Positions 1,835-24,917 are shown, numbered from the stretch's first letter. The stretch: DNA of 27,519 nucleotides from a virus (IMGVR_UViG_3300044512_003393:1-27519); one strand, 5' to 3'. Program-made: numbers and translations. Notes: generated by a model not told the origin, from the letters alone.

Positions 1835-4800
1835 ATGGCTGATCTCGTTCGCAGTATATATGTAGCAGATGATTACGTAGCTGTCGGCTACGTTCAAAAA
1901 TCTGAAGAAGCTGGTCATGGCTTTGCTGGTATTAGTACTAGTGCTGTTTCTGGTATTGGCGAACGTATCGCTAAAGGAACCGCCGGTGTATTTGGTCAAG
2001 GTACCAGTGCTGTTTCTGGTACCGGTGAAGTTCAAAGAGATCTTGTATCTGGATTCGATGGTATCGGTCAAAGCACCGTATCTGGTACTGGCGAAAGACA
2101 AATAGATCAAACCTCCGGATCTCTTCCTACTAATACAGGTTCCACTTCCGGAACTGGCGAACGTCAAATTGATCAAACCTCTGGTTCACTGCCTACTAAC
2201 ACAGGATCTACATCTGGTGTTGGTGAACGTCAAATTGATCAGACTTCTGGTTCTTTACCTACAAATACTGGTTCGGCATCTGGTGTTGGCGAGAGACAAA
2301 TAGATCAAACCTCTGGATCTTTGCCAACAAATACTGGTTCTACAACTGGTATTGGTGAACGACAAATTGATCAAACCTCTGGATCTTTGCCAACAAATAC
2401 CGGATCAACATCAGGTACCGGCGAAAGAACTGTAGTTCAAACTTCTGGTAACTTACCTACAAATACTGGATCGGTTTCTGGCACGTCTGAAAGAGATATA
2501 ACTGGTGCTGGATCACTACCTACAAATACCGGATCAACATCAGGTATTGGTGAACGACAAATTGATCAAACCTCTGGATCTTTACCTACTAATACCGGTT
2601 CTACTTCTGGTACTGGTGAACGTCAAATTGATCAAACATCCGGATCGCTACCAACGAATACAGGTTCTACAGCTGGTGCCGGCGAGAGAACAATTGTTGG
2701 AACTTCTGGAAATCTATTAGCAAATGCTGGATCGGTTTCTGGCACGTCTGAAAGAGATATAACTGGTACTGGATCGCTACCAACGAATACAGGTTCTACA
2801 ACTGGTACTGGTGAACGTGAAATAGTAGTTGTTTCAGCTATAGGTGGTATCAATTCTTCATCGATTAATGCAATCGGTGAACGAGAAGTTAAATCTACAG
2901 ATGGCACGGTGACACCATCTACAACATCTGTAGTGTCATCAATTGGCGAAAGAACTGTCACACAATTTTCCGGTGCACTTGCTATACAGACAGCCGGATC
3001 AACGTCTGGTACCGGTGAGCGTCAAATAGATCAAACCTCCGGATCTCTCCCTACTAATACAGGTTCTACATCTGGTACCGGCGAGCGGCAAATTGATCAA
3101 ACCTCGGGTTCGTTGCCTACTAACACAGGATCTACATCTGGTGTCGGTGAAAGACAAATCACAGCAGCGGATAATCTGCCAACAAATACTGGTTCTACTT
3201 CTGGTATTGGTGCAAGAACAATTGTTCAAACATCTGGTAATCTTGAATCTAATAATAGTTCACTAAGTGGAACATCAGAAAGAGAAAACACATCTACATC
3301 AGGTAATCTTGTTGCCGATAATAATTCTACGACCGGTGTAGGTGAAAGACAGGTTGTTATAACTTCAGGATCTTTGCCAACTAATACTGGATCAACGTCT
3401 GGTGTTGGTGAGCGACAAATAACTGCAACCGATAATCTACCAGCCATTACATCATCGACTTCTGGTGTTGGTGAACGTCAGATTGATCAAACCTCCGGAT
3501 CATTACCAACTAATACTGGTTCTACAGCTGGTACTGGTGAACGTCAAATTGATCAAACATCCGGATCATTACCTGCAAATATTGGCTCAGCGTCAGGTAC
3601 TGGTGGAAGAGAAGCTGTTTCAACTTCTGGATCTCTACCTACTAACACTGGTTCTACTTCTGGTATTGGTGAGAGAAATATTACGATTGAAGCCGGCTTT
3701 GATGGTGTAGGCACATCATCTATATCTAGCACTGGTGAAAGAAATATTACGGGTACTGGCGTACTATCTTCTGATAACGGATCGACATCTGGTATCGGCG
3801 AGCGTCAAATTGTCCAGACTTCTGGTTCATTACCAACCAATACGGGATCAACGGCTGGTACTGCTGAAAGACAAATCGATCAAACTTCTGGTTCACTGCC
3901 TACCAATAACGGATCAGTTTCTGGTATTGGTGAACGAGTTGCAGAAGGTACAGCTGGAATCTTTGGTATAGGAACAAGTGCTGTATCATCTATTGTTGAA
4001 AGAACTGTTGTTGGTACTTCTGGTAACTTAGAATCAAATGTTAGCAGTGCAAATTCAACTGGCGAACGTCAAATAGATCAAACCTCTGGTTCACTACCAA
4101 CTAATACTGGATCAACGTCTGGTGTTGGTGAAAGAGATGTAACTGGTACTGGTTCTTTACCAACTAATACTGGATCAACATCCGGTGTCGGTGAAAGAAA
4201 TATTGTAGCTGAAGCGACTGGTGTCGACGGCATCCAAAATGGATCAGCTTCGGGTATTGGTGAAAGAAATATTGTAGCTGAAGCAATTGGCATTGATGGT
4301 ATTCAAACTGGATCCGTCACAGCAATTGGTGAACGTATAATTGTTGTCATTGCTGGTGTTGATGGTATTCAAACTGGTTCAACTTCAGGTACTGGTGAAG
4401 GAAATAGAACAGGATCAGGATCGTTTGTAGCTACAGATGCATCATTGAGTGGTATCGGTGAACGTCAGATTGATCAAACATCCGGATCATTGCCTGCAAA
4501 TACTGGCTCGACGGCTGGTACCGGTGAACGACAAATTGATCAAACAACTGGATCATTACCAACTAATACTGGTTCTACCTCTGGTGTTGGTATTCGTAAG
4601 ATTACCCAACCAATTGGGAATATTCTTTTTGCTGCCGATAGTTCGGCATCTGGTGTCGGTGAGAGACAAATAGATGTAACAGATGGTATTGTTCAACCTA
4701 ATACATCGAGCGCTAGCGGTACAGGTATTAGATCAATTGTACAAACTGCATTTAGTACTGCATCTATTACATCAGACGTAGATGGTACCGTTGAACGGGA

Positions 4801-6673
4801 AATTGTACAAACCGCAGAGGCGTTACCAACCAATACTGGATCCGTTTCCGGAGAAGGTGGATCGTTTACTTTAATAGGTGTCGTATCTGCAGATCTGCAA
4901 GCAACAACCGAAGGATCTACTTCAGGTTCAGGTATAAGAACGGTTGTTTTAGCTGACGGTATAATACAAGAAGATGTATCTGAAGCAAGCGGCAGTGGCG
5001 GAAGAGAAGTTAAGCAGACATCTGGTACGATAGCTACAAACGATGCATCAGTGTCAGGTATCGGCGAGCGTGTCGCTGAAGGTACCGCTGGAATATTTGG
5101 CCAAGGAACAAGTACTGTATCTGGTACGGGTGAAAGAAATGTAACCGCACTCGGCATCGATGGCATTCAAGAAGGATCTACTTCTGGTTCTGGTGAAAGA
5201 ACAGCAGTAAGTGTTGATGGATTTGATGGTATTCAATCTTCTGCTTCTAATGGATCGGGTATACGACAAGTTGTTTCTGTCGACGAATTAAATGGTATTG
5301 GTGATTCATCAATATCAGGTATTGGTGAAAGATCAACTACATCTAATGGTGATCTACAATCTGACGATGCCAGTGTAAGTGGTATAGCTGAAAGAGAAAT
5401 TACTGCTACAGGTACAATAACGAGTAATGATGGATCTACATCAGGTACTGGTGAGCGTGAAATAATTGCGACCGGTATAGATGGTATTTTATCTGGCTCG
5501 ACAGGCGGTGTCGGCGAAAGAAGTTCTAATGTAACAGGCATAAACGGAATTCAGTCTGGTTCAGCTTCGGGTATTGGTGAAAGAGCTGTATTAGTTAATG
5601 GTGCACTCACACCAACTACAGTAGCTGTAATATCATCAATCGGTGAAAGAACTATTACACAGTTTAATGGTTTCTTAGCACAACCTACTGGACAAGCTGT
5701 ATCAGCCACCGGTGAGCGAGAAATCACTCAAACTTCTGGATCTCTACCTACTAATACAGTATCTGTTTCTGGTACAGTAGAACGAGAAATTGTACAAACG
5801 GCTGAAGCATTACCAACCAATACTGGTTCGACATCTGGGGTTGGTGAAAGAGAAATAACCGGCACTGATAATCTACCAACCAATACTGGTTCGACATCTG
5901 GGGTTGGTGAAAGACAAATTACCGCAATAGATAATCTACCAACTAATACTGGTTCTACTTCTGGTATTGGTAAAAGAACAATTGTTCAAACTTCCGGGTC
6001 GTTGCCAACCAATACAGGATCTGTATCTGGTACGTCTGAAAGAGAAATAACCGGCACTGATAATTTACCAACCAACACAGGATCAACGTCTGGTTCTGGT
6101 GAAAGAGAAATAAAACTTGTTGATCAGGCATTCCCAGTTCAATATAGTGTTATATCTGGTATAGGTAAACGTTCAATAATTTCTACCGGTGGATCACTGG
6201 TTGCTGATAATTCAGAAGTGATTGGTTCTGTAATAAGAACTGTTAAATCATTATCAGCGAACTTCGAAGCTCAATTAGGATCAGTAAGTGGTGCTGGAGA
6301 TTTAGATCCACTTATAAAAACTGGATCTGGTACATTACAAGCAGGAAATTCTCAAGTCTTAGGTGCTGACGGCGAGAGAGAAATTACTCAAACGGCATAT
6401 GATCCGCCGGCGCTTACTGCATCTACTTCTGGATTAGGTGCGCGAGTTGACTCACTCGTCACGGCCGGTATATTTGGAATCGGTGTTTCAAGTATTCAGG
6501 CAGTTGCAAAAGCAACAGTATTTACACAAATTAGAGTTGATACTGGATTTGAAGACACTATTACAATCACTTCAGAAAAAGATCATGAAATTAGAGTTAT
6601 TGGATTTGAAGATACTGTTACAATCACTTCAGAAGAAGATCAAGAAATTAGAATTATTTCACAGGCCAGTTAG
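1835..6673 (+). CDS. Large tandem-repeat virion protein (1612 aa, about 70 repeats of 21-22 aa)
   Basis: SD GAGGT. Consensus unit GERQIDQTSGSLPTNTGSTSG(T/V/I). It lies directly upstream of gp13. Function is inferred. Confidence 0.8.
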   Translation: MADLVRSIYVADDYVAVGYVQKSEEAGHGFAGISTSAVSGIGERIAKGTAGVFGQGTSAVSGTGEVQRDLVSGFDGIGQSTVSGTGERQIDQTSGSLPTNTGSTSGTGERQIDQTSGSLPTNTGSTSGVGERQIDQTSGSLPTNTGSASGVGERQIDQTSGSLPTNTGSTTGIGERQIDQTSGSLPTNTGSTSGTGERTVVQTSGNLPTNTGSVSGTSERDITGAGSLPTNTGSTSGIGERQIDQTSGSLPTNTGSTSGTGERQIDQTSGSLPTNTGSTAGAGERTIVGTSGNLLANAGSVSGTSERDITGTGSLPTNTGSTTGTGEREIVVVSAIGGINSSSINAIGEREVKSTDGTVTPSTTSVVSSIGERTVTQFSGALAIQTAGSTSGTGERQIDQTSGSLPTNTGSTSGTGERQIDQTSGSLPTNTGSTSGVGERQITAADNLPTNTGSTSGIGARTIVQTSGNLESNNSSLSGTSERENTSTSGNLVADNNSTTGVGERQVVITSGSLPTNTGSTSGVGERQITATDNLPAITSSTSGVGERQIDQTSGSLPTNTGSTAGTGERQIDQTSGSLPANIGSASGTGGREAVSTSGSLPTNTGSTSGIGERNITIEAGFDGVGTSSISSTGERNITGTGVLSSDNGSTSGIGERQIVQTSGSLPTNTGSTAGTAERQIDQTSGSLPTNNGSVSGIGERVAEGTAGIFGIGTSAVSSIVERTVVGTSGNLESNVSSANSTGERQIDQTSGSLPTNTGSTSGVGERDVTGTGSLPTNTGSTSGVGERNIVAEATGVDGIQNGSASGIGERNIVAEAIGIDGIQTGSVTAIGERIIVVIAGVDGIQTGSTSGTGEGNRTGSGSFVATDASLSGIGERQIDQTSGSLPANTGSTAGTGERQIDQTTGSLPTNTGSTSGVGIRKITQPIGNILFAADSSASGVGERQIDVTDGIVQPNTSSASGTGIRSIVQTAFSTASITSDVDGTVEREIVQTAEALPTNTGSVSGEGGSFTLIGVVSADLQATTEGSTSGSGIRTVVLADGIIQEDVSEASGSGGREVKQTSGTIATNDASVSGIGERVAEGTAGIFGQGTSTVSGTGERNVTALGIDGIQEGSTSGSGERTAVSVDGFDGIQSSASNGSGIRQVVSVDELNGIGDSSISGIGERSTTSNGDLQSDDASVSGIAEREITATGTITSNDGSTSGTGEREIIATGIDGILSGSTGGVGERSSNVTGINGIQSGSASGIGERAVLVNGALTPTTVAVISSIGERTITQFNGFLAQPTGQAVSATGEREITQTSGSLPTNTVSVSGTVEREIVQTAEALPTNTGSTSGVGEREITGTDNLPTNTGSTSGVGERQITAIDNLPTNTGSTSGIGKRTIVQTSGSLPTNTGSVSGTSEREITGTDNLPTNTGSTSGSGEREIKLVDQAFPVQYSVISGIGKRSIISTGGSLVADNSEVIGSVIRTVKSLSANFEAQLGSVSGAGDLDPLIKTGSGTLQAGNSQVLGADGEREITQTAYDPPALTASTSGLGARVDSLVTAGIFGIGVSSIQAVAKATVFTQIRVDTGFEDTITITSEKDHEIRVIGFEDTVTITSEEDQEIRIISQAS
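1950..6520 (+). repeat. Coding tandem repeat with 66-nt (sometimes 63-nt) period
   Basis: The Glu codons of successive GER anchors lie at 2093 and 2159 (66 nt apart). I counted about 69-70 GER-like anchors by hand. Confidence 0.92.
6544..6657 (+). repeat. 57-nt (19-aa) tandem duplication at the C-terminus of the repeat protein
   Basis: GFEDTITITSEKDHEIRVI / GFEDTVTITSEEDQEIRII; TGGATTTGAAGA occurs at 6544 and 6601. Confidence 0.9.
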
Positions 6674-7503: not shown

Positions 7504-8232
7504 ATGGCTACTAACGTCTATTTTGACAATTTTACGAATACACCAGAACAAAATCTCATAGAAGATCTTGTTATCGAGTCTATTCGTATCTACGGCCACG
7601 ATCTATATTATTGTCCTCGTACTGTTAACAATTACGATAATACATATAACGAAGATGCTACATCATCTTATGATAGTTCTTATTATGTAGAGATGTACAT
7701 AAAGAACGTAGAAGGATTTGAAGGAGAAGGAGATTTCCTTTCTAAATTCAATATTCAAATCAGAGATGAAATTACATTTACGATAGCTAATAAAGTATAT
7801 AACGAAACAATCGGTGACTTTAATGATACACCACGGCCAAGAGAAGGCGATCTTTTATTCATGCCTCTCACTGAGAAAGTATATGTAATTAAGTTTGTTG
7901 AACACGAATCAATATTTTATCAAATGGGTTCATTACAAGTATTTGATTTGCGGTGCGAACTCTTCGAATATAGCGGTGAAACACTAAATACTGGTGTAAC
8001 TCAAATTGATGATCTACAAGAGAAGTATTCACAATCACCTGATGCAGATGATGGTTTACAAAGAGATGCTAATAACAATGTTATCATAGATGCAAATACA
8101 GGTCGGCCTCTCGGCGTTTCAAGTGACTGGAATCCGGATGATCCATTCTCAGATAATGCAGATTTACAGAGTGCTGCAAACTTTATCGATTGGTCTGAAC
8201 AAGATCCATTTAGCGAAGGTGGTAGATACTAA
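7504..8232 (+). CDS. gp14: Neck / head-closure protein
   Basis: EQNLIEDLVIESIRIYG, GFEGEGDFLSKF, RPREGDLLF, FYQMG, CELFEYS motifs; synteny. Confidence 0.95.
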   Translation: MATNVYFDNFTNTPEQNLIEDLVIESIRIYGHDLYYCPRTVNNYDNTYNEDATSSYDSSYYVEMYIKNVEGFEGEGDFLSKFNIQIRDEITFTIANKVYNETIGDFNDTPRPREGDLLFMPLTEKVYVIKFVEHESIFYQMGSLQVFDLRCELFEYSGETLNTGVTQIDDLQEKYSQSPDADDGLQRDANNNVIIDANTGRPLGVSSDWNPDDPFSDNADLQSAANFIDWSEQDPFSEGGRY

Positions 8233-9323
8233 TGTTCGGTAGAACTTATTTCCATGACACGATGAGAAAATATGTCATCTTATTTGGCACGCTGTTCAAT
8301 GATGTATGGATTAATCGTGAAGATTCAGATGGTAATGTAAAAGATGTAATAAAGGTACCGCTGACATACGGTCCACGCGATAAACATCTGGCTAGAATTC
8401 AAGGTATATCAAATGATTACGATCCATTGTCACAAGAATTCGCAATGGTTGTTCCTCGAATGGGATTCGAAATAACTGGATTTACTTATGCGCCTGAAAG
8501 AAAATTACCTACGATACAAAAATATACAGTAGAAGACGTAGACGAGAACAATCAGCGTAGATATTATCAATACAATCCAGTACCATACGATATTACATTC
8601 AGTCTTGCGTGTTTTGTTAAAAACTCAGTTGATGGTACTAGAATTGTAGAACAAATACTACCATATTTTACTCCAGAATGGACAACTACCGTCCAACTTA
8701 TTGACGAGCCAGATATTACTGTTGATATACCGCTAGTGTTAAACACAGTTGGATTAGATGAAATATATGAAGGATCTTATGAAGATAGACGTACACAGAT
8801 CTGGAATTTAGAATTTACGATGAAGTGTATGCTATTCGGTCCAATCTATGATCAAAAAGTTATTAAGCTTGCAAATACACAAATATTTGATGCTACATTA
8901 TATGATGATATTAGTGATTCATTCGGTGAATTAAATCCTGCATCTAAAATAATCGTTCAGCCAGGTTTGCTAGCAAATAACCAACCGACTATATATACAT
9001 CATTGAATGTTGTACAAGCTACGGCGGTAGCAACAATATTAGATGGTGAAGTAACTGATATTGTAATTTCTGAAGCTGGCTTAGGTTATAAGGAAGCTAC
9101 TATTACTATCACCGGCGGCGGTGGCACTGACGCTACAGCAACAGCTACTATAGTGAGTGATAGCGTATCAATAATTAATGTTACAAATGGAGGTTCAGGT
9201 TATACATCTACTCCAACAGTAACAATCTCGGCTCCAGATTTAGAATCGTTGTCAGCCAGTGAAATCACCGATGATAATAACTATGGAATAGCTGAAACTA
9301 CTCAAGCGATATATCCTGAATAA
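8232..9323 (+). CDS. gp15: Tail sheath stabiliser / tail terminator with C-terminal extension
   Basis: YVILFGTLFND, KVPLTYGP, PRMGFEI, YNPVPY, IVEQILPYFTP motifs. Coupled to gp14 through TAATG. Confidence 0.93.
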   Translation: MFGRTYFHDTMRKYVILFGTLFNDVWINREDSDGNVKDVIKVPLTYGPRDKHLARIQGISNDYDPLSQEFAMVVPRMGFEITGFTYAPERKLPTIQKYTVEDVDENNQRRYYQYNPVPYDITFSLACFVKNSVDGTRIVEQILPYFTPEWTTTVQLIDEPDITVDIPLVLNTVGLDEIYEGSYEDRRTQIWNLEFTMKCMLFGPIYDQKVIKLANTQIFDATLYDDISDSFGELNPASKIIVQPGLLANNQPTIYTSLNVVQATAVATILDGEVTDIVISEAGLGYKEATITITGGGGTDATATATIVSDSVSIINVTNGGSGYTSTPTVTISAPDLESLSASEITDDNNYGIAETTQAIYPE

Positions 9324-11464: not shown

Positions 11465-14020
11465 ATGCCTTTTCAATTAAGCCCGGGCGTTAATGTATCA
11501 GAAATCGACCTAACTACAATTGTCCCAGCAGTCGCAACCACAGACGCAGCTGCAGCTGGTGTTTTCCAGTGGGGCCCAGTAGGTAAAGCCACATTAGTTG
11601 TTTCTGAAGACGAGCTCGTAAAAGAATATGGTAAGCCAAATAGCGATAACTTTGAGACATGGTTCTCAGCTTCAAACTTTTTGGCATATTCTAACAGATT
11701 ATATGTATCAAGAGCAGGTTACACCGAAGGAACAGATGTTGTATTAGCACCGTATGTTTATGACGGTGGTAACTATCTTGTAATTACTGGTAATACTGCA
11801 ACAGGTGTGCAGACTGGATTCGATGCAGTTGAATCTTCAGTTATTCCAGCAGATACATCAGTCACTGCAGTGTCCACGGCTCAAGTTGACGTATCAGTTG
11901 GATTTGCAACTGACGTTGATACAGGCAATAATACTATTGATGTTGCACTTGGTACCGACCTTGTAGAAGGCGAAAGAGTTCAACTTATTCGAGATGGCGG
12001 AACTGGTACATTGCCATCACCATTCGCTGAAGGTACGGATTACTACGTTTTCAATGTAACTGCTAACGCTTTCCAACTTTCTACTGATCAATTTGGCGGT
12101 ACTGCTGTCACAATCGGTGATACTGGTGATACTGATTTTGTGGTCCGTCGATCTGGTGATACTCGAATCACTTTAAATAATAATGTAAACGGCCCAGGCG
12201 GTGATAATGGCATTGTTTCTGTTGAAATCTACGACGAGGATTTTACATTCAATGCTATTGCAAATACTGCGGCTCTCGGCACAGACTCTACACTCGCTAA
12301 TCATATCGTAAAGAATGATGATGCATATGACGATGCGTCTCAAAACTTTGATTCGGCCGTGCAATATGTTGCTAAGTACCCAGGCGCCCTCGGAAATTCA
12401 TTGCAAATTTCTGTATGCGATAGCGCTGCAGCTTTCGAAAGCGAAATTACTATTCCATCTACACAAGCCGCAAACGCTTCAGTCGCCGTTGCAACTACTT
12501 TGACACTTAATGTAGGCGAAAGAATTGCTACTCTTACTACTGACTCTGGTCAGAACGAAGATTTAGATGCAGTCACAGATGATTTTGCAGTCGGCGATCT
12601 TCTAAAGTTTGGTAACTCATCTGTCGGTTTCCAGTGGCTTGAAGTTGAAGCTATCGGCGCCGGTGACGGTACATCAAAGACAATTACATTCACTGATAAT
12701 CTTGCTATTTCAGAAAATATAGATCTGGAAAGTGGTGATACATTCGATAGATTCTGGAAGTACTATGATCTAGTACAAAAAGCACCGGGTCAATCACAGT
12801 TTGTAGCTGAGCAAGGTAATACTTCAGCGAATGATGAAATGCATATTGTAGTAATTGACGAAGATGGTAAGATTTCTGGTGTTCCTAACACCGTTTTGGA
12901 AGTTTTCCAAGAAGTGTCAAGAGCAACCGACGCAAAAGGAATCGATGGAGAAATTATTTATTATAAAGAAGTACTTAATCAGTCATCACGATATGTTTGG
13001 GCTGGTAGTGATCGATCAGGTTCAGCTACAACAACAGCTGCATTGATATCAACTTCAACTGCTACTACACCAGAAACCTTGAGCTTCGGTTCAGGTACTG
13101 ATGTAAATGGTGGTGAGGGTGCTTGTACTCTTGGACAGATTCTTCGATCATACGACGTATTTAGATCTTCTGAAGACTATGATATCTCGTTGGTTGTTAG
13201 TGGCAAAGCCCGCGGCGGAGCAAACGGAACACAGATTGCAAACTACATCATCGATAATATCTGTGAGCGTAGAAAAGATTGTGTATCATTCGTTTCTCCT
13301 GCTAAACAGGATGTTGTCAATAACTTCAGCGATATTTCAGAAGATGTTATTGCATTCCGTAATTCGATGAGATCAACATCATATGCTGTCATGGATTCTG
13401 GTTACAAGTATCAATATGACAAGTTCAATGATGTGTATCGATGGATTCCATTGAATGGTGATATCGCCGGTCTCTGTGCGCGCACAGACGATCTTAGAGA
13501 TGCATGGTGGTCACCAGCAGGATTTAATCGAGGCAACATTAAGAATGTTATTAAGCTTTCTTGGAATCCTAAGAAGGGAGAGCGAGACGTTCTGTATGCA
13601 AATGGAATTAACCCAGTAGTTAATTTCCCGGGTCAAGGCATTGTCCTCTTCGGTGATAAGACTCTGCTTTCTAAGCCGTCTGCCTTCGATCGAATTAATG
13701 TACGAAGATTGTTCATTGTTTTGGAAAAAGCTATCGCGGCTGCTTCTCAATCGACACTGTTTGAATTCAACGATGAATTTACTAGATCTACATTCGTAAA
13801 TCTTGTAACACCATTCTTGAGAGATGTACAGGCTCGAAGAGGCATTACAGATTTCGCAGTTGTTTGTGACGAAACAAATAATACGGGTGAAGTTATCGAT
13901 CGCAACGAGTTTGTTGGCGACATTTATGTCAAACCAGCAAGAGCGATCAACTTTATTCAGTTGAATTTCGTCGCGGTAAGATCTGGCGTAGAATTCTCCG
14001 AAGTTGTTGGGAATTTCTAA
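11465..14020 (+). CDS. gp18: Tail sheath protein (851 aa, with insertions)
   Basis: MPFQLSPGVNVSEIDLT, FQWGP, YPGALGN, WWSPAGFNRG, FDRINVRRLF, KPARAINFIQLNFVA motifs. Confidence 0.98.
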   Translation: MPFQLSPGVNVSEIDLTTIVPAVATTDAAAAGVFQWGPVGKATLVVSEDELVKEYGKPNSDNFETWFSASNFLAYSNRLYVSRAGYTEGTDVVLAPYVYDGGNYLVITGNTATGVQTGFDAVESSVIPADTSVTAVSTAQVDVSVGFATDVDTGNNTIDVALGTDLVEGERVQLIRDGGTGTLPSPFAEGTDYYVFNVTANAFQLSTDQFGGTAVTIGDTGDTDFVVRRSGDTRITLNNNVNGPGGDNGIVSVEIYDEDFTFNAIANTAALGTDSTLANHIVKNDDAYDDASQNFDSAVQYVAKYPGALGNSLQISVCDSAAAFESEITIPSTQAANASVAVATTLTLNVGERIATLTTDSGQNEDLDAVTDDFAVGDLLKFGNSSVGFQWLEVEAIGAGDGTSKTITFTDNLAISENIDLESGDTFDRFWKYYDLVQKAPGQSQFVAEQGNTSANDEMHIVVIDEDGKISGVPNTVLEVFQEVSRATDAKGIDGEIIYYKEVLNQSSRYVWAGSDRSGSATTTAALISTSTATTPETLSFGSGTDVNGGEGACTLGQILRSYDVFRSSEDYDISLVVSGKARGGANGTQIANYIIDNICERRKDCVSFVSPAKQDVVNNFSDISEDVIAFRNSMRSTSYAVMDSGYKYQYDKFNDVYRWIPLNGDIAGLCARTDDLRDAWWSPAGFNRGNIKNVIKLSWNPKKGERDVLYANGINPVVNFPGQGIVLFGDKTLLSKPSAFDRINVRRLFIVLEKAIAAASQSTLFEFNDEFTRSTFVNLVTPFLRDVQARRGITDFAVVCDETNNTGEVIDRNEFVGDIYVKPARAINFIQLNFVAVRSGVEFSEVVGNF

Positions 14021-16360: not shown

Positions 16361-17492
16361 AATAGATCCGATTGTTACTTCATTCGCTGTTGCTGCTGCA
16401 AAGAAAGAAGCGAAGAAAGTAGAAGATAAATTATTTAATGTCTTTGAAGATCTACAAAGTCTTCAAGGTCCTATGGGTTATGAAGGACCAAAAGGTCCGA
16501 TAGGAGAACAAGGACCGATCGGCCCGCAAGGTATGATAGGTCCTCGTGGTGAGAAAGGAGAAAAAGGTGAGCAAGGCGAGAAAGGTGACAAGGGCGAGCA
16601 GGGTGAACAAGGCATCCAAGGCATCCAAGGAGACACCGGCGAGAAGGGCGAGACAGGCCTACGTGGCGAAAAAGGAGACACCGGAGAAGTTGGGCCTATG
16701 GGACCGACTGGTGAAATGGGTCCACAAGGTGAACGGGGAGAGCAAGGCCTTCGAGGAGCTGATGGGGAGAGTGGTCCTCAGGGAGAGCGAGGCGAAACTG
16801 GAGCCAAAGGTGATGTCGGACCAGCAGGACCTCAAGGAGAAAAAGGCGATAAAGGCGATCAGGGAGAGAAAGGTGAGAAAGGTGACACCGGTGAAGCAGG
16901 CCAGTCGGTCGACAAAAAAGAAATAGAAGAACAAATTAATTCTCTCTTCGAGGATGCTAAAACATATCTCGACTCACAACAAAAACAATTACAAGAAAGT
17001 TTAGACGCTACACAGTTACAAGATCTTACCGAGTTTAAATCTAAACTAACAAAAGAAGTATCAGATACTATTGAAAAACATAAGAAGTTTATTGATAGTC
17101 AAATATCTTCTAAGTGGGCATCATCTGCTGGTGGTGGTTCGGTAAATATATTACAGATGGATGATGTTAAATTCGAGAAACGCCATGAAGTCGAAGGCGA
17201 TGCTATTTTGATCTTCGATGCTACGACACAAAAGTTTCAATCTGAATCATTCAACGATATCATAGAAAGGTTACAGGTAGGCATGGAAAAACAATACGAT
17301 AGACTCGTTGATACCGATGGCAATTTTATATACATTGGTGAAGCAGACCCGGGTACAGCACGTGATGCAGCTGGCTGGCGAATTAAGCGTGTCTATGAAT
17401 TAGCCGGTGATGATGTAGAAATTATATGGGCAAATAATACTGCCAATACTGAACTGATCTGGGATGATCGAGCAACGTACGAGTATAACTAA
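16350..17492 (+). CDS. Collagen-like fibre protein (380 aa)
   Basis: 49 uninterrupted Gly-X-Y triplets, then a predicted helical segment, a [13 protein letters not shown] linker and a C-terminal YIGEA.PG...WRIKR...WDDR domain. Confidence 0.9.
16467..16907 (+). repeat. Collagen (Gly-X-Y)49 repeat
   Basis: Counted by hand from GPM to GQS. Confidence 0.95.
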
Positions 17493-19138
17493 TGGCATTA
17501 CCTACTCTCACAAATGCACCAACGCTTATCGATGCTGCTGATGCAACCACTAACTGGACCGGCTCATCTCTTACCGCAGGCGGCGCAGGTGATATTACTA
17601 TCGATGGTAATGGTTCTATTGCGGCTATTTGTCGTGCTAACAACTCTGAATTAGCTACAAGTGGATGGACAGGTTTTACTGCATCAACAGCAGGACATTT
17701 ACGAGGATGGTTTCAGTTCTTCTCTCTTGGTAACCTAGATTATTTTGATTTAGGATTAAATAGCGCAGCTGCTACATTTCAGTTATTCTCTGGTCCTGTT
17801 GCACAATATACTGGTGGATTAACACTGAAAGATACAACATTCGGTGGTTGGTTCTACGTACTTATTGATTTATCAGGAACACCAGACACAGGTACAATCC
17901 CAACAACAATCACTTCGATTGAATATATTTTTAGAAGAGATTCACAGCCTCGAAACGCTCTTAATACCTTTGCTGATGCATTACATTACGGAGATGGATA
18001 TACTGTAACAGGTGGAACATCAGCCGATCCAGTTACTTTTCTTACTATTGCAGAACAAGATATTACAGACGGTGCATACGGCATCGTACAAACTGTAAAA
18101 GATACTGTTTACTGTTTTGGTGCAGTCACAATTGGAAATGGGGCAACAGCAACATACCTTGAAGTAAAAACGACTGCGATTCTTTTTGATACACAAAGAT
18201 TAGCTGCAGCTGATCTTTATAATATCACCGCAACCGGTTCAGGTTGTACTTTTGATATGCAAAATTCACTGATTCGCGGAAACTCAGGTGATATTGGTTC
18301 AGAAACTTTTGCATTTGATGTACAGAATGTCGGCACACTTATTTTCGATACAAATACATTAGTACGAGCCAGTCCAGTTACATTTGGTTCTGGACAAACT
18401 GCCAATTCATCTACATTTGATGTGTGCGGTACTGTTACTACAAACGGTGCTACTATAAATAGAAGCGCATTCATTGAAACAATTGCAACCCACGCAATTG
18501 CTGCAACATCAACAACTGCAAATAATATTAATGCTTGTACATTTACTGGTGATAATACGAGTCATGCAGTACAATTAACAGATACTATCAATACCGACAC
18601 AACTATTCGTTGGAATAGTACATATGATGAGACAACATACGCGAATACAAATGCAACTGGAATTGGTTCAGCTGGTGACTCAGAAGTATTACTTGTAAAT
18701 GTAAATACTGGATCCACATTAACGATTAGTGTAGAAGATGGTGTTGCATCACCAACATATCGAAATGAAGGTGGTGGTACAGTATTAGTACAGACACTTG
18801 TCAATTTTGATATTTCTAATATTGAAGCCGGTACGGAAATAAGATTATATAAACAGACTGCTCCAGCAACTTTAGGTTTAGGTGGTTGTGAAGATGTTTC
18901 AAACACATCATCATATGATACTGGATTTAGTCAAATCGGTGGCCCAGGTGTTAATAGTGATCCTAAATATAGTATTCGTTATCAATATAATTTTGCAGAT
19001 TTTGGTTCTAACACACCCATATGGGTGGTAGTACAGGGTTTAGGGTTTCAATATTTAAGATTGGCATCTACATTGACAGCTAGTGATAGTTCATTGCAAA
19101 TAAATCAAGTAATTGATAGAAATTATAGTAATCCATAA
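17492..19138 (+). CDS. Putative virion appendage protein (548 aa), beta-rich, possible beta-helix core
   Basis: TAATG-coupled to the collagen gene. Thr/Gly/Asn-rich with STFDVCG / SAFIE / CTFTG strand repeats. Ends DRNYSNP. Confidence 0.7.
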   Translation: MALPTLTNAPTLIDAADATTNWTGSSLTAGGAGDITIDGNGSIAAICRANNSELATSGWTGFTASTAGHLRGWFQFFSLGNLDYFDLGLNSAAATFQLFSGPVAQYTGGLTLKDTTFGGWFYVLIDLSGTPDTGTIPTTITSIEYIFRRDSQPRNALNTFADALHYGDGYTVTGGTSADPVTFLTIAEQDITDGAYGIVQTVKDTVYCFGAVTIGNGATATYLEVKTTAILFDTQRLAAADLYNITATGSGCTFDMQNSLIRGNSGDIGSETFAFDVQNVGTLIFDTNTLVRASPVTFGSGQTANSSTFDVCGTVTTNGATINRSAFIETIATHAIAATSTTANNINACTFTGDNTSHAVQLTDTINTDTTIRWNSTYDETTYANTNATGIGSAGDSEVLLVNVNTGSTLTISVEDGVASPTYRNEGGGTVLVQTLVNFDISNIEAGTEIRLYKQTAPATLGLGGCEDVSNTSSYDTGFSQIGGPGVNSDPKYSIRYQYNFADFGSNTPIWVVVQGLGFQYLRLASTLTASDSSLQINQVIDRNYSNP

Positions 19139-19149
19139 ACTTGTTTTTT

Positions 19150-19157
19150 CATAAATA
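19150..19157 (+). promoter_or_regulatory. Late promoter variant for the 744-aa gene
   Basis: Intergenic CATAAATA about 35 nt upstream of the ATG at 19192 (SD AGAGG). Confidence 0.65.
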
Positions 19158-19191
19158 ATAAAAATAATAACTCCAACAGAGGAAAAAATCG

Positions 19192-21426
19192 ATGACAGTC
19201 CCAATTACAACACCGATTACTGATCTGGACGACATCAATAGCAACTGGGATAATACAGCCTTTGCTAATGGTATCTTCGAATCAGATGAAGTTTATATTG
19301 ATGCTGACAACAAATCATTTTATTTTAAAAACGGCGGCAACTTTGCAAGTGCTGGTTCGGGTGTGACAGGTCAGGCTCTTTATTCATTCTTTAAAGATCG
19401 TTGGAAAAACGATCAATACTTGCCACAGTATGAATTTCCAATGCTTTCAATTACGAACGAACAGTTCGAATTTATTAATGGTTGGAAGATTGACGATACA
19501 CAAACCGTAGCTCAATCAGGCGGATTTAACGCTACATCACGAAAAATGATTCGAACCGCTGGTTGGTCAGAGGTAGAAGTAGATGGTACGGTTTCTCGAC
19601 GCTACTTTGGTTTCGTATCTCTAGGTGAGCTCGGTACAACTGATCAGCTTTATTTCGTACAGGATGATAGTTTCGAAGCTACTCCTGCTGATACAGCTTA
19701 TACTGATGCTGTTAACGAAGCTATTCAGTTCTATGGTAATATTGATACTGCGGCCGGTGGTGATACAGCAGCCGATGACTTCGTTGGTGAAGCTCTCGTG
19801 ACTGGTATTACTGGTGCTTCTATCGTTGTATCGACAAAAACTGTAACATCTTCATCTCACGGTCTAGTCGCTGGTGATGTAATTAAAGTATCATCTGCAA
19901 CTGATGCAGATATTGATGGATTCTACATCATCGATTCAGCTGATACAAATACATTTGTCATTCGCGATGCTCTACCTTCTGGTGCATCTGATGTATCTGA
20001 CCTTGTAGTCGATCAAGTTGGTTTCGATCGATCAACATACTATAAAGCATTCGTAAGAACGCGTGGAAAGACATACGCTGACGCTGACTTGGCTGACATC
20101 GGTGTTACCTCAGGTACAACTTATATTGTGTATCGTTTCCCAATTACAAATTCCGACGATTTGAACATTAATACTACAGATGATGCAGCATTCACGGGTG
20201 CTTCTATCTCAAGTATTACTGGTGATGGTACAACTGCAACGTTGACCGCATCTGCTGCTCATGGTCTCTATGTTGGAGCTCCAATTACTATTGCCGGTGG
20301 TACAAGTTACAATGGTAATCATGTAGTTATAGCAATTTCAGGCACAACTGACGCAGAAGAAGTATTGACATTTGCTTCTACTACGACGACGTCTGATGGT
20401 GCTGGCGGTACTGTTGCACTTCGTTATACCGATACAATGGATGTAACATATCTTCCAAATCCAGATAGCAACAGCGGTGATGTAGTTATTAAAGGCGATT
20501 GGGTAACTGGAACTACATTCGATCTCGGTGATGTTGTATTTGACGTTGGTAACTCATCAGGAGCTGCAGATGGTGCACGTTGGTACTATCTCGATGCTAC
20601 TACAGGTGACTCAACCGGTGCTAACCTTGCTGCTGATACTAACAACACTTGGGTAGAATGGACTCCGGGCCAGCGAGACATTGAAGAGAATGGAACATAT
20701 TCAGCATACTCGGTCGTTTACGATTTGAATAATGGTGGAACTACACCGGGCGCAACGAAAGAAGTTGCATACGAATATGCTCAGTATCTACTCCGTCTAA
20801 CAACTGATATCAACGCCGGTGCCAACACAAACCGACGTGGTGATATTGCAGATCCACTGGTGTTCTTCGTAGGTTCAACACTTAATACTTACTCAGATAC
20901 ATCTATTCCATCTGCTGTTGTACTTGATGATATTGCTGATTCTGACGTTAACAACGTTCAGTATAACGAAGCAACTGCTGTTACTGGCCGAACTAACCGT
21001 ATCCACCTTGCTCCTACCGTTGTACAGGTAACTATTAACTTCAATAACAACCTGTTCAATGACACTGATGCAATTTTCTACGCATATTACACAACTGGTA
21101 CAGATACTGGTTCAGGTACACGTGACTTCGGTTCACCAAGAGCTCTTGAACTTCAAAAAGTATCTGGTGGTATTGCAAACACAGTAGGTTCAGATGTTAA
21201 TAACAATGTACCAGATAACGGTACGTACTCGTTTAACTATGCTTATACTGCTGATGATACAAACGGCAGAACAACTGGTGACAACGCTGCTGATGTTAAC
21301 ATCACAATTGTGGCACTAGGTTTGAATACTGGTCAATATGTAACAACAGCTGGTGACATCACAGCTACTGGTGCAACGTTCTCGTTAGTTGCTCCATTAG
21401 AGCGAAACTACACTAACCCAGCATAA
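19192..21426 (+). CDS. Putative abundant virion appendage protein (744 aa)
   Basis: Own promoter and terminator. N-terminal GVTGQALYSFFKDRW...FINGWKI domain, two HGL-type inserts, a Trp-rich module. Ends ERNYTNPA. Confidence 0.75.
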   Translation: MTVPITTPITDLDDINSNWDNTAFANGIFESDEVYIDADNKSFYFKNGGNFASAGSGVTGQALYSFFKDRWKNDQYLPQYEFPMLSITNEQFEFINGWKIDDTQTVAQSGGFNATSRKMIRTAGWSEVEVDGTVSRRYFGFVSLGELGTTDQLYFVQDDSFEATPADTAYTDAVNEAIQFYGNIDTAAGGDTAADDFVGEALVTGITGASIVVSTKTVTSSSHGLVAGDVIKVSSATDADIDGFYIIDSADTNTFVIRDALPSGASDVSDLVVDQVGFDRSTYYKAFVRTRGKTYADADLADIGVTSGTTYIVYRFPITNSDDLNINTTDDAAFTGASISSITGDGTTATLTASAAHGLYVGAPITIAGGTSYNGNHVVIAISGTTDAEEVLTFASTTTTSDGAGGTVALRYTDTMDVTYLPNPDSNSGDVVIKGDWVTGTTFDLGDVVFDVGNSSGAADGARWYYLDATTGDSTGANLAADTNNTWVEWTPGQRDIEENGTYSAYSVVYDLNNGGTTPGATKEVAYEYAQYLLRLTTDINAGANTNRRGDIADPLVFFVGSTLNTYSDTSIPSAVVLDDIADSDVNNVQYNEATAVTGRTNRIHLAPTVVQVTINFNNNLFNDTDAIFYAYYTTGTDTGSGTRDFGSPRALELQKVSGGIANTVGSDVNNNVPDNGTYSFNYAYTADDTNGRTTGDNAADVNITIVALGLNTGQYVTTAGDITATGATFSLVAPLERNYTNPA

Positions 21427-21441
21427 TAAATAGATATGAGC

Positions 21442-21465
21442 GGGGGAGCACAGCTCCCCTTTTTT
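21442..21465 (+). terminator. Intrinsic terminator after the 744-aa gene
   Basis: GGGGAGC-aca-GCTCCCC followed by TTTTTT. Confidence 0.88.
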
Positions 21466-21480
21466 GATAAGAGGTAAATT

Positions 21481-21651
21481 ATGACAGATAAAGAAATGAA
21501 ACAAAAACTAGATGAGAGCGTAGACTACTTCGAAGACTTCATCAATAAAGTCCTTCCAAAAAATATCGAAGGTGTTCAGCCAATGGATGTGATGAAACAC
21601 TATAATGTTCTTCGGTCAGAATTAGCAAAACTATACGTAGATCTAGACTAA
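21481..21651 (+). CDS. Small hypothetical helical protein (56 aa; not in the ORF track)
   Basis: MTDKEMKQKLDESVDYFEDFINKVLPKNIEGVQPMDVMKHYNVLRSELAKLYVDLD*. SD GAGGT at 21471-21475. It fills the gap between neighbouring genes. Confidence 0.75.
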   Translation: MTDKEMKQKLDESVDYFEDFINKVLPKNIEGVQPMDVMKHYNVLRSELAKLYVDLD

Positions 21652-21663
21652 TAGGAATCACAC

Positions 21664-24324
21664 ATGGCAGGCGAAAAGCGATATACACGAATACCACCGG
21701 AGAGCACTGGCGACCGTGTGTACATGATACACACTGCCGAGATTGAATTCGAAAACGGCGGCAATAACATAGGTCATACTTGGCAAATTGGTGCCATGTA
21801 TATGATCGCTAGTTTCGGTATGATTCATATTCACGGTGTATTCGACCGCGGTGATGGTACAGGTATTCTTGCAGTACATTATAATAAAACTGACAAATTT
21901 GAGAACAATGAACCTACTGCAGGTTCAGAAATCAGTATCGATGGAACGCCAGTTGGTGATGTTGTTACTGCATACGATGTATACATTCCGGCTCAAAATA
22001 TCATGGGTTATGATAACCCAGAGTACGGATTAGATATTGATCCATACGGTTCAGCACAAATTACATTTGATGAAGGTAAACCTCAGTTAGATGCATTTGG
22101 TAAGTTACGTGTCACAGGTGCAACCCATCTGGGCGAATATGTGTATGCAACCAAAGACGAACTGTATGAAAATTTTGCTGTCACATATCTAAATAAAGGT
22201 ATGAGAAGTGTTCGAACTGCGGATATTGAATATAGTAGTACTGCAAAATACATTTCTCCAAGAGTAAAAACACAACAAGATTTTGCTGCGGCAACAAGTA
22301 AGACATATCACCACTATATTCCCGGCTCTTCGCATTTGTTTATGGGTACAGCGTTATTCAGTAACACAGGCAAATTAAGTGCAGGCGCTCAACCAAACAG
22401 TGGCTGTGAAAGAAACTTTGGGATGTTTGATGCTGATAACGGATTTATGTTCCGTGTTGGTCCTACTGGTGTTTTGTATTTGGTAAGACGTTCAAAGATA
22501 ACCGGAAGTAAAGTTGATTATGTATTAGCATCGTCAGATACAAATGACGGATTTGATAATTTTAACGGCGACCAAGTAAATGGTTCAAGAGGCGCTGCAA
22601 ACAAGAGCCAGATGGATTTAGATTTGTCAAAGGACAATATCTATTGGCTTGATGTGCAATGGCACGGCGCCGGACGTATTCGCTTTGGTACATTTAGTAA
22701 TGGTCAACGTGTGATAATGCATGAATATTATCACGGCAATAGATATGACGAACCAATGAGTGCAACAGCATCTCTTCCAGTTTGTCACGCGAACTATTAC
22801 TATAATGATACCGAAATGCAAGCTCACGCGGTATATGGTGACGGAACAGGTACAGGCGGTGCTTTTGGTCCACTCCCCGCTGACTTAGTGAGATTAGGTT
22901 TAACCACTTCAAGAACAGCAGATAGCAATTACGTTTACAGCCGACATTGGAGTGGTTCAGTTTGGACTGAAACAGACATTGATCTACAGTCACTCGGCCG
23001 TCCAAAAACATATACCACAGGCCACTTACAGGTAAATGGTGCTGGGTTTAGTCAGCTGTTTACTATAGCACCGGCGCCACTTTTAGCATCAGGCGATACT
23101 GATCACAGTATTTTTGTTCCAACTAAAATCACAGCATTTGCATATGACAATGCAGTAAATACGGCAAATACCGCTGGATTAGAACGTAATTCAATTGTTC
23201 ACTACCGTGTAGGTAAAAACTGCGTGCACAGTGGACATGACTTTGAGACTATTCCTGGCACAAACTTCCAAGTTTCCACTGCTGGTATAAGTTTTGAAGA
23301 TACAAATAAAGCAGGCAATACAAAAGAAATTATATTCGAAGATATGTTTAATGGTGGCTTTACTGATATTCTTACAGACCGTTTTATCAATCTCCAGAAT
23401 GGATCGTTTAAAAATGATCCAGATGATGGTGGTGTAGCAGAACAGGTAGTAACAGATATCACTCAAAACGAAGCAACTGCTGGTATTGGTGCTGCGGTCG
23501 ATGCTGTAGGTAGTAGCACCACATTATTGTTAGATGACCAAACAGTTACAACGACTACATCAGGAACAACTGCAATATATTCTACTACTATTGAAGTTGC
23601 TGATGCTACAGGATTTGTAAGAGGCGGAACAATTGTAATTAATGACAGTGCAACATCGCCTCCTGTAGTTACAGATTACACTGCTGATGGTACTACAGTC
23701 ATTGATATATCTGGCACAACAATCACTTTAAGTAAGAATATTCAAAATACAGCAATTCCATCGGGCGTTACTGTTACACACATTCCACTTATTGAAGGTG
23801 CATCAATTACTGGTACTAATATTGCGACTGATACAGTAATTAGAAGTGTCGATAGCGGAACACAGGTTACACTGAGTCAAGCAACAACAGGTACATTCGC
23901 TGGCACTGAAACATTCACAATGACACGACCTCCAGTAGTTACTATTGATCCTGCTGATGCAAATAGCAGACCTCAAACAAGTGATCGTTGGGAGTTAAGA
24001 GAGCCATTTACTGCTACATTCCCGTTGAATGTAAATGCTGCTGATGGTGCATTATATTGTCATGGTGTAACAGGTACTGGAACGAATCCATTCCCTCGCA
24101 CTTGCTTTATCAAGATCATCAGTCTCACAAAGGCGTATCTATATGCAGATCGTGAACTCACTCAACCTGTAGATACGAGCGCGTTTACATATACAAGTGG
24201 TGGTGTTATTCATGGATTTGCTGGACCTCAAACTACGTTTACTTTCTTTGCTCACGAGCAAATTAAAAATTTGCAAGATCCACGAGTCATGTTTACAATT
24301 ACTTGGAAAGAGATTGTTCAGTAA
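21664..24324 (+). CDS. Putative virion / receptor-binding protein (886 aa), possible lectin-like beta-sandwich core
   Basis: RIPPESTG N-terminus; DAFGKLRV, FGMFDADNGFMF, YWLDVQWHGAGRIRFG, TASLPV and terminal ITWKE motifs that I recall from a widespread aquatic-phage family. The fold is inferred. Confidence 0.7.
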   Translation: MAGEKRYTRIPPESTGDRVYMIHTAEIEFENGGNNIGHTWQIGAMYMIASFGMIHIHGVFDRGDGTGILAVHYNKTDKFENNEPTAGSEISIDGTPVGDVVTAYDVYIPAQNIMGYDNPEYGLDIDPYGSAQITFDEGKPQLDAFGKLRVTGATHLGEYVYATKDELYENFAVTYLNKGMRSVRTADIEYSSTAKYISPRVKTQQDFAAATSKTYHHYIPGSSHLFMGTALFSNTGKLSAGAQPNSGCERNFGMFDADNGFMFRVGPTGVLYLVRRSKITGSKVDYVLASSDTNDGFDNFNGDQVNGSRGAANKSQMDLDLSKDNIYWLDVQWHGAGRIRFGTFSNGQRVIMHEYYHGNRYDEPMSATASLPVCHANYYYNDTEMQAHAVYGDGTGTGGAFGPLPADLVRLGLTTSRTADSNYVYSRHWSGSVWTETDIDLQSLGRPKTYTTGHLQVNGAGFSQLFTIAPAPLLASGDTDHSIFVPTKITAFAYDNAVNTANTAGLERNSIVHYRVGKNCVHSGHDFETIPGTNFQVSTAGISFEDTNKAGNTKEIIFEDMFNGGFTDILTDRFINLQNGSFKNDPDDGGVAEQVVTDITQNEATAGIGAAVDAVGSSTTLLLDDQTVTTTTSGTTAIYSTTIEVADATGFVRGGTIVINDSATSPPVVTDYTADGTTVIDISGTTITLSKNIQNTAIPSGVTVTHIPLIEGASITGTNIATDTVIRSVDSGTQVTLSQATTGTFAGTETFTMTRPPVVTIDPADANSRPQTSDRWELREPFTATFPLNVNAADGALYCHGVTGTGTNPFPRTCFIKIISLTKAYLYADRELTQPVDTSAFTYTSGGVIHGFAGPQTTFTFFAHEQIKNLQDPRVMFTITWKEIVQ

Positions 24325-24917
24325 TGCCTTCTATCATTTTCAACTATGGTAATTGGTGGAATTGGGAGGACTATCCTAATCAGAAGGCCGTATTTGATGG
24401 ACCGAACAAGATCATATATATTTCTGAGGGCGTAACAGAATTAGATGTACAAGAAGATTTATATTCTGCGTGGAAAGAATGGAAAATAAATTCTCAGGAA
24501 GCGCCGGGCAGTCGTGGCGCCACAGCTTATTTGAGAGCTTTTACTGCTATCGGCGGTGACCCGATTTCAGGTGATCAAAATGTTGGTATCACATACTTTC
24601 TCGAGAATGGATGGAGAATTCAGCCGTTCGCTAGTAAAAATCCATACGTACTAACAGTAAATGGAAATCTGTATACACGAGAAACTGGAGAAAATCCGTT
24701 TAAATTTGCCGAAGGCGTATCAGTATCATTGACTAGATCTAATATCGTAGATATAATTAGAGTCGAGGCACTTGGAGTAAATATAACAGAACAGGACATC
24801 GCCGCGATTGCTGATCAAGTATGGGATGAAGCTCTTACTGATCATACGTCAGACGGCACAACTGGTAAGAAACTTGGTAAGATTGCGACAAAAGTGCAGG
24901 ATATCGCATTAAGATAA
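24324..24917 (+). CDS. Putative virion protein (197 aa), N-domain related to that of the 744-aa protein
   Basis: Start reassigned to the TAATG-coupled ATG at 24324. FDGPNKII...DLYSAWKEW...YFLENGWRI domain and C-terminal IADQVWDE motif. Confidence 0.72.
   Translation: MPSIIFNYGNWWNWEDYPNQKAVFDGPNKIIYISEGVTELDVQEDLYSAWKEWKINSQEAPGSRGATAYLRAFTAIGGDPISGDQNVGITYFLENGWRIQPFASKNPYVLTVNGNLYTRETGENPFKFAEGVSVSLTRSNIVDIIRVEALGVNITEQDIAAIADQVWDEALTDHTSDGTTGKKLGKIATKVQDIALR

Follow-up and report, generated by a model that had tools for sequence, protein, structure and literature searches.

The window analysed here, the whole 27,519-nucleotide stretch IMGVR_UViG_3300044512_003393:1-27519, is a complete virus record estimated to hold ~15% of its genome. 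It carries a T4-type run of neck, terminase, sheath, tube, portal and prohead genes, in which six additional genes lie between the portal gene and gp67, encoding a collagen-repeat protein, protein A, protein B, a 56-amino-acid (aa) open reading frame (ORF), an 886-aa protein and protein D (Table 1). An earlier note on this DNA had proposed that A, B and D build a pilus-like filament of tip, shaft and base joined through complementary terminal domains. Its three-protein scheme rested on ORFs that are indeed present, and left out the 56-aa and 886-aa ORFs and the collagen gene, which is coupled to A. Our analysis favours, with moderate confidence, a mobile appendage cassette of the type that builds the horn on the head of cyanophage Syn5 (Voetvirus syn5), with D as base, repeated B as shaft and A as tip.

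The three proteins share two modules in a complementary pattern, a C-terminal domain common to A and B, here called the plug, and an N-terminal domain common to B and D, the socket. Pairwise support is thin for A and B (BLASTP E 0.002 across 84 columns), and D and B give no significant pairwise match (best E 1.3). The motifs by which both shared domains had first been recognized are nonetheless present, and comparison of hidden Markov models (HMMs) upholds both at the profile level. For the plug, an A-type profile built without B members aligned with that of B at an hhalign probability of 91.4 (E 9e-7, score 41.8, 40 columns; 79.8 with tool-made alignments), against a score of 14.1 for the best of 30 column shuffles. 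For the socket, D against B reached a probability of 76.6 (40.1 with whole-protein tool alignments) and, with broader families, 93.8 (E 1.8e-7, score 42.7), against 18.5 for the best of 40 shuffles. The cross-controls, D against the C-module and the A-module against the N-module, stayed at probabilities <1. As a search model the D HMM retrieved no B sockets at E<1e-4, the best reaching E 6e-4 in a later search. The A-type plug matches 2555 protein clusters (50% identity clusters, E<=0.001) and is exclusively C-terminal in 140 of the 149 representatives examined.

Table 1. Features of the A-B-D cassette and adjoining genes in the window.
Feature	Position	Strand	Basis or remark
Collagen-repeat protein, 380 aa	16350..17492	+	Pfam Collagen E 7.8e-26; stop overlaps A start
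A, 548 aa	17492..19138	+	Variable N-terminal passenger and C-terminal plug; gp54-type architecture
A-type plug module (~residues 435-548), end DRNYSNP	18794..19135	+	Module HMM
T4-type late promoter-like site CATAAATA	19150..19157	+	Motif ahead of B
B, 744 aa: socket, core, inserted domains, plug	19192..21426	+	Syn5 gp53 homolog; AlphaFold2 (AF2) model
B socket (N-module, ~residues 30-100)	19279..19491	+	Invariant Y64, S65, K68, F82, P83, I87, T88, E90
Two small inserted beta-barrels (residues 201-279, 329-411)	19792..20424	+	Alignment, VIA-align
Inserted segment of B (~430-495), CBM5/12-like, lead only	20479..20676	+	PF02839 in relatives
B plug (residues 608-744): prealbumin-like beta-sandwich, GLxTGQY loop, ERNYTNPA tail	21013..21423	+	
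Intrinsic terminator-like hairpin after B	21442..21467	+	G+C hairpin and T-run, -14.6 kcal/mol
56-aa ORF 3' of B	21481..21651	+	Conserved, 54-73% identity in L001-L006
886-aa virion structural protein	21664..24324	+	phrog_1645, PHROG E 9.6e-33
D, 197 aa: socket (~20-140) and helical C-terminal extension	24324..24917	+	Syn5 gp55 homolog

A, B and D are almost certainly kin to Syn5 gp54, gp53 and gp55, respectively. B matches gp53 in three colinear segments (phmmer E 2.6e-50; tblastn E 4e-16, 63% covered), and a compact relative of 449 aa, P0113, is 51% identical to gp53 end to end. D matches gp55 (phmmer E 1e-13) and, by tblastn, also S-TIP28_58, and the A-module HMM matches gp54 at E 1e-29, a likeness limited to the C-module. 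As far as sequence can tell, the locus belongs with the Syn5 horn genes, which it fits on every feature testable here; in both the genes are adjacent, the tails read RNY/RQYxNP and the socket lysine is present. The two differ in that the window comes from a T4-like myophage and Syn5 is a T7-like podophage, in gene order, which is A-B-(56 aa)-(886 aa)-D in the window and B-A-D in Syn5, in the A passenger, which is not homologous to that of gp54, and in B, which in the window has ~300 additional residues in inserted domains and its own late promoter and terminator. Raytcheva 2014 is said to have described two Syn5 horn proteins, which we take to be gp53 and gp54, with gp54 closer to the tip; the two were reportedly identified as separate gel bands. 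In published accounts the horn of Syn5 sits on the head vertex opposite the tail (PMC4238041, PMC10575957) and is attached after the tail (PMC4238041). S-TIP28 (L009, 11441-13197) retains homologs of gp53, gp54 and gp55. Syn5 gp58, by contrast, has no match in S-TIP28 or in any other of the loci, while gp55 accompanies gp53/54, and the retention of gp55 without gp58 in S-TIP28 is consistent with a gp55 that goes with the horn and not with gp58.

The three families occur together. Our viral scans took in the best 80 of 232 and the best 80 of 388 candidates, plus 7, 73 and 1 loci. After removal of 17 duplicates and 79 loci with short flanks or a cut B from 159 B-bearing loci, 63 were evaluable, and A and D lay beside B in every one of them (D counted as fused in L218), so that the co-occurrence expected of a joint system was found. 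Seeding with D gave 80 loci, of which 63 dropped out, 56 as short and 7 as duplicates; the other 17, close T4-like relatives, all had both A and B. These loci are not independent samples. Gene order was ABD in 52, BAD in 9, BAAD in 1 and AAABD in 1, with D last in 62 of 62 scored orders and in the fused case. Phages of T7-like, flavobacterial and other kinds also have the set, as do genome bins in stretches that look like prophages. Its cultured carriers are Syn5, which has been engineered (PMC8776855), S-TIP28, Maribacter phage Panino and Paraglaciecola virus PANV1; the accessible part of the PANV1 paper contains nothing on the A, B and D genes. A literature search, in which subscription journals mostly fell outside, turned up no paper that treats the cassette in T4-like phages or the rule of its assembly. 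Within that search, the idea that the system is undescribed holds for T4-like phages; it has to be given up for the families themselves, which are relatives of Syn5 gp54, gp53 and gp55.

A predicted complex of D (residues 14-152) with the B plug (603-744) supports binding of plug to socket. Its docking score was 0.71, with 0.00 for the best control; the mark for this score is reached by 116 of 157 solved pairs and 2 of 215 mismatched ones, a calibration that applies only roughly, as the complex was modelled with our own alignments. Model runs shared at least 67% of contacts, and the partners had a predicted local distance difference test (pLDDT) value of at least 84. In the model, the helix 43-55 and loop 67-80 of D contact B at 626-632, 646-653, 707-718 and the tail 738-744, with K51 of D central and in contact with B 709-711 and 716. 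The best-confidence contacts are the sandwich face and the loop, with the tail as an extra, so that a tail-only or donor-strand mechanism does not follow from the model. Positions of the B socket equivalent to the modelled D interface are more conserved (mean 0.77) than the rest (0.55). PDB sequence searches revealed no similar complex.

Gene fusions and co-variation point the same way. L218 (5977-7923) encodes an in-frame B-D fusion with approximately three residues between tail and socket; it is the one case among 198 B ORFs, and 33 longer D proteins retrieved in a dedicated search included no second B-D fusion. In P0401 and P0278 an A plug is joined directly to a B-type socket, and in L015, L082, L103 and L145 a plug-like sandwich, judged by eye, is joined to a divergent socket, the corresponding parts being two genes in L002. 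We also observed a fourth class of proteins, designated E-type (L002 6345-9882; L015 4640-7627), in which an A-type plug is combined with a socket and core like those of B and which occurs alone or fused to a tip; such paralogs suggest that the chain can be lengthened by gene duplication. Of 130 distinct loci with B and D, 84 have the socket lysine in both proteins, 46 lack it in both and none is discordant, with four of the B helices read by pattern rather than alignment. In 41 of the 46 loci without it, B Q715 has become K, as if the lysine had moved across the interface. In L226, the sister of Panino (support 1.0), both sockets have lost K and the B loop has changed, while the A plugs are canonical by eye, a pattern suggesting that the socket of B follows the plug of B. 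With the complex model, these fusions and co-variations support the complementary module pattern and the C-to-N docking that the earlier note had put forward; docking by the tail alone does not follow from the model, in which the main contacts are face and loop. We regard joining of plug to socket as very likely, with the B-B and A-B contacts presumably following the modelled B-D contact.

B is also set apart by its regulation. The site CATAAATA, which resembles the T4 late promoter consensus, and the hairpin flank B, and the gaps ahead of A or D have no late promoter motif; as the earlier note had stated, only the two-module gene of the three has both signals of its own. Among 28 distinct T4-like loci including the window, YATAAATA lies within 90 bases upstream of B in 25/28, of A in 0/24, of D in 0/25 and of the 886-aa gene in 10/22. 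Codon bias is stronger in B than in A in 23 of 26 T4-like loci and stronger than in D in 19 of 23, and such bias is customarily read as a sign of high expression. Taken together, the B-specific promoter and the codon bias favour many copies of B per A or D and speak against a 1:1:1 chain. A sigma-70 scan of the window stayed at chance level (32 vs 32.2). An exact TATAAATA also lies within gene A (window 18454-18461); it may serve B as another promoter or be there by chance.

On the reading we favour, the cassette would have entered a T4-like myophage between its portal and prohead-core genes, and the subunits would be linked head to tail, each with its C-terminal beta-sandwich plug docked onto the N-terminal helix-and-loop socket of the following one. 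D, having a socket only, would begin the chain on the virion; B, with socket and plug, would be overproduced from its own late promoter and repeat as the shaft; and A, with a plug only, would close the chain and present its variable, probably adhesive passenger. That A is the tip and D the base is likely, given the variable A passengers, the helical extension of D and what is reported of Syn5. Repetition of B in the phage of the window is fairly probable: of the homopolymer proposed earlier, B as the abundant subunit stood, and the B-D fusion in L218 argues that a short fixed chain also works. A head vertex is the site we slightly prefer for the filament, with neck or tail as the alternatives, and it probably serves to adhere weakly to cells or particles, with the LamG-type passengers in 3 of 24 relatives pointing that way and the CBM5/12-like insert as a lead only. 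On balance we lean towards a widespread, hitherto undescribed self-assembling virion filament, a polymer with a swappable adhesin cap and an anchor of the gp55 family.

Several results weigh against this reading. A terminator was found 3' of B in 8 of the 28 T4-like loci (crude scan). The A-module HMM recovered no B protein at E<0.001, and the A/B alignment spans 40 columns only. Conservation of the D interface (0.50) is barely higher than that of the rest of D (0.45). The lysine concordance amounts to two changes on the B-core tree, with non-K groups of 42, 3 and 1, and 42 of the 46 non-K loci form one clade that was sampled deliberately; because the A plug also shifts in that clade, only L226 separates B-B from A-B docking. 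Four loci have K and a B without terminal Asn/Asp. The fusion in L218 locks B and D at 1:1 in that phage. The available part of the Panino paper describes a plain podovirus and no horn, yet the full gene set is there. Finally, Gipson 2014 assigns gp55 to capsid knobs (densities I/J), two per asymmetric unit; the assignment was made by secondary-structure prediction among three candidates, and no model was built.

Some of these points would sit better with a fixed-length ordered chain, in which each strand has one A, one B and one D, sockets are specific for their plugs and B does not polymerize. Such a chain would lengthen only through added genes, that is, additional A copies or E-type paralogs, and E-type paralogs or tip-E fusions do occur in L002, L005, L015, L082, L103, L145, P0278 and P0401; several loci have at least two A genes, the plugs of A and B differ strongly, and the L218 fusion fits as well. 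We nevertheless consider this arrangement unlikely, as it leaves the B-specific late promoter and codon bias unaccounted for, and as both sockets lose the lysine jointly, with the loss in L226 tracking the loop of B and not that of A. Less probable still is a side-by-side oligomer of A and B forming a horn or fibre, with D a separate capsid decoration and the shared domains relics of duplication. The knob assignment of gp55, the lack of significant pairwise similarity between D and B and the weak conservation of the D interface would agree with it; set against them are the predictive basis of that assignment, the passing complex model, the B-D fusion and the occurrence of D beside B where the head types are unrelated and gp58 is missing. 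Isopeptide bonds, known from pilin domains of Gram-positive bacteria and from HK97, could in principle link the same chain covalently, from the socket lysine to the terminal Asn/Asp of the YxN tail, and the tails give this some colour (terminal N/D in 78/84 B and 73/84 A tails of K loci, 4/46 and 5/46 in non-K loci), as does the middling resemblance of the plug fold to pilin domains, but it is very improbable, since the low-error K51 pairs listed for the complex model are with B 709-711 and 716 and not with 739 or 742, the acid at D79 does not follow K, several K loci have no N/D, and gp53 and gp54 were reportedly identified as separate bands on gels.

The head-to-tail filament that we favour invites comparison with the bacterial pili that have tip, shaft and anchor subunits, namely chaperone-usher, sortase-assembled and Bacteroidales type V pili. 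The three-class logic with capped ends is alike, the plug is a prealbumin-like sandwich, and the C-terminus-to-N-domain polarity resembles what we take to be the type V mechanism. Unlike these pili, the window system shows neither chaperone nor usher, sortase, LPxTG or lipoprotein leader that we could see; its plug, modelled as a complete sandwich, would dock by face and tail; its socket gave no structural match; and the filament would be built on the virion rather than secreted. Pilus-like is thus apt for the logic and not for family membership. No sortase was detected among the 15 ORFs scanned, in a fragment that covers ~15% of a genome. Membership among sortase pilins was considered and rejected: the C-terminus is RNYSNP in A, RNYTNPA in B and DIALR in D, not LPxTG. 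Among phages, the chain-like tail fibres of A1002, GP4 and VP1 likewise consist of small subunits of more than one kind in series (PMC13730344). In A1002 and GP4 these subunits form dimers threaded along a distinct rope protein at the tail, whereas no rope protein was seen in the window, a comparison made by description.

If such a filament system exists, its cassette moves among podo-, sipho- and myophages, the construction of the Syn5 horn would have its explanation, and gp55 would be reassigned from knob to horn base. In the papers we could search, the horn has so far been treated as a one-off oddity, with neither a structure nor an assembly rule. The locus and its relatives offer a testable rule, with plug on socket, named residues, polarity and an expected stoichiometry, and they put the published gp55 assignment in question. 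The number of clusters with the tip module suggests that such appendages are common on aquatic phages, and a modular filament whose tips can be swapped would be of use as a building block made of protein.

A, B and D have no family name in Pfam or PHROGs. The A proteins range from 131 to 1234 aa across loci, and their passengers fall into 17 loose clusters. Among the A proteins of 24 relatives, three have LamG-type domains and one a cadherin-like domain, only one of these matches being above the curated cutoff. For the passenger in the window, Atlas gave leads only, with beta-helix rows at a template-modelling (TM) score <0.5. The AF2 model of D is moderate (pLDDT 77.1); its best VIA Z in a structure search was 2.2, which proves neither a new nor a different fold, and a PDB sequence search with D and three family profiles gave nothing below E 0.67.

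The AF2 model of B has a pLDDT of 94.0 and a predicted TM score of 0.90. The first inserted barrel resembles the E1 FCCH domain (VIA-align Z 8.8, root-mean-square deviation (rmsd) 2.4, 75 aligned), and both barrels are missing from compact relatives. PF02839 was found in 4 of 22 members of the B family (best E 0.026), without a match in B of the window itself. The plug is modelled as a full sandwich, its last 12 residues lying mostly outside strands, and is closest to SlaB (Z 7.6, rmsd 2.5, 90 aligned). Its scores against pilin domains are middling at Z 6.0-6.5 (4oq1 Z 6.5, rmsd 3.3, 95 aligned; 3qdh and 3phs Z 6.0), equal to those of non-pilins and below the level that the VIA-align tool calls common. 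Foldseek with B gave low-TM matches only (TMq <=0.12 in pdb and <=0.19 in viral); RrgB, the top match, was not accepted as support. The core of B (~1-200, 280-328, 412-607), which was not folded alone, was barely covered by the structure searches. In L099, L108, L124 and L134, a large insertion follows immediately behind the socket helix of B, the B tail is shortened (ERNYAP, ERNYSA) and the A tail is lengthened. A 65-aa ORF 3' of B in L062 and L063 (9321-9518) is similar to the C-terminal end of B, and in L214 (near 5974) B is broken off after 402 aa.

The surroundings of the cassette are those of a T4-like phage. The Pfam scan of the window ORFs identified the portal (PF07230, E 2e-171) and the tail terminator gp15 (PF16724, E 6e-64), and the PHROG scan the prohead gene (phrog_1064); gp15, gp20 and gp67 flank in T4 order, and the nearest cultured relatives of the portal are ~53% identical. 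Other ORFs we take to be gp13, gp14, gp16-19 and gp21 from likeness and gene order only. The collagen gene, translationally coupled to A, lies upstream of the cassette in most T4-like relatives. The 886-aa gene is coupled to D through a stop/start overlap, and its product lacks both modules and was given no family by an Atlas search. It and the 56-aa gene are optional, the 886-aa gene being missing from many A-B-D loci including Syn5, and distant relatives of the 886-aa protein occur in cyanomyophages and HMO-2011, in records without matches to B, D or P0113. Elsewhere in the window, a 1612-aa protein (1835-6673) with many short imperfect repeats of the GERxI...TNTGS type and no Pfam or PHROG match is possibly another long fibre, and a 134-aa virion structural protein (phrog_3758) is encoded 5' of it. 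The gp15 homolog (8232-9323) has an additional C-terminal domain (~251-350) common to cyanophage structural proteins, and the sheath-like ORF (11465-14020) encodes 851 aa, compared with 668 aa in the relative L002.

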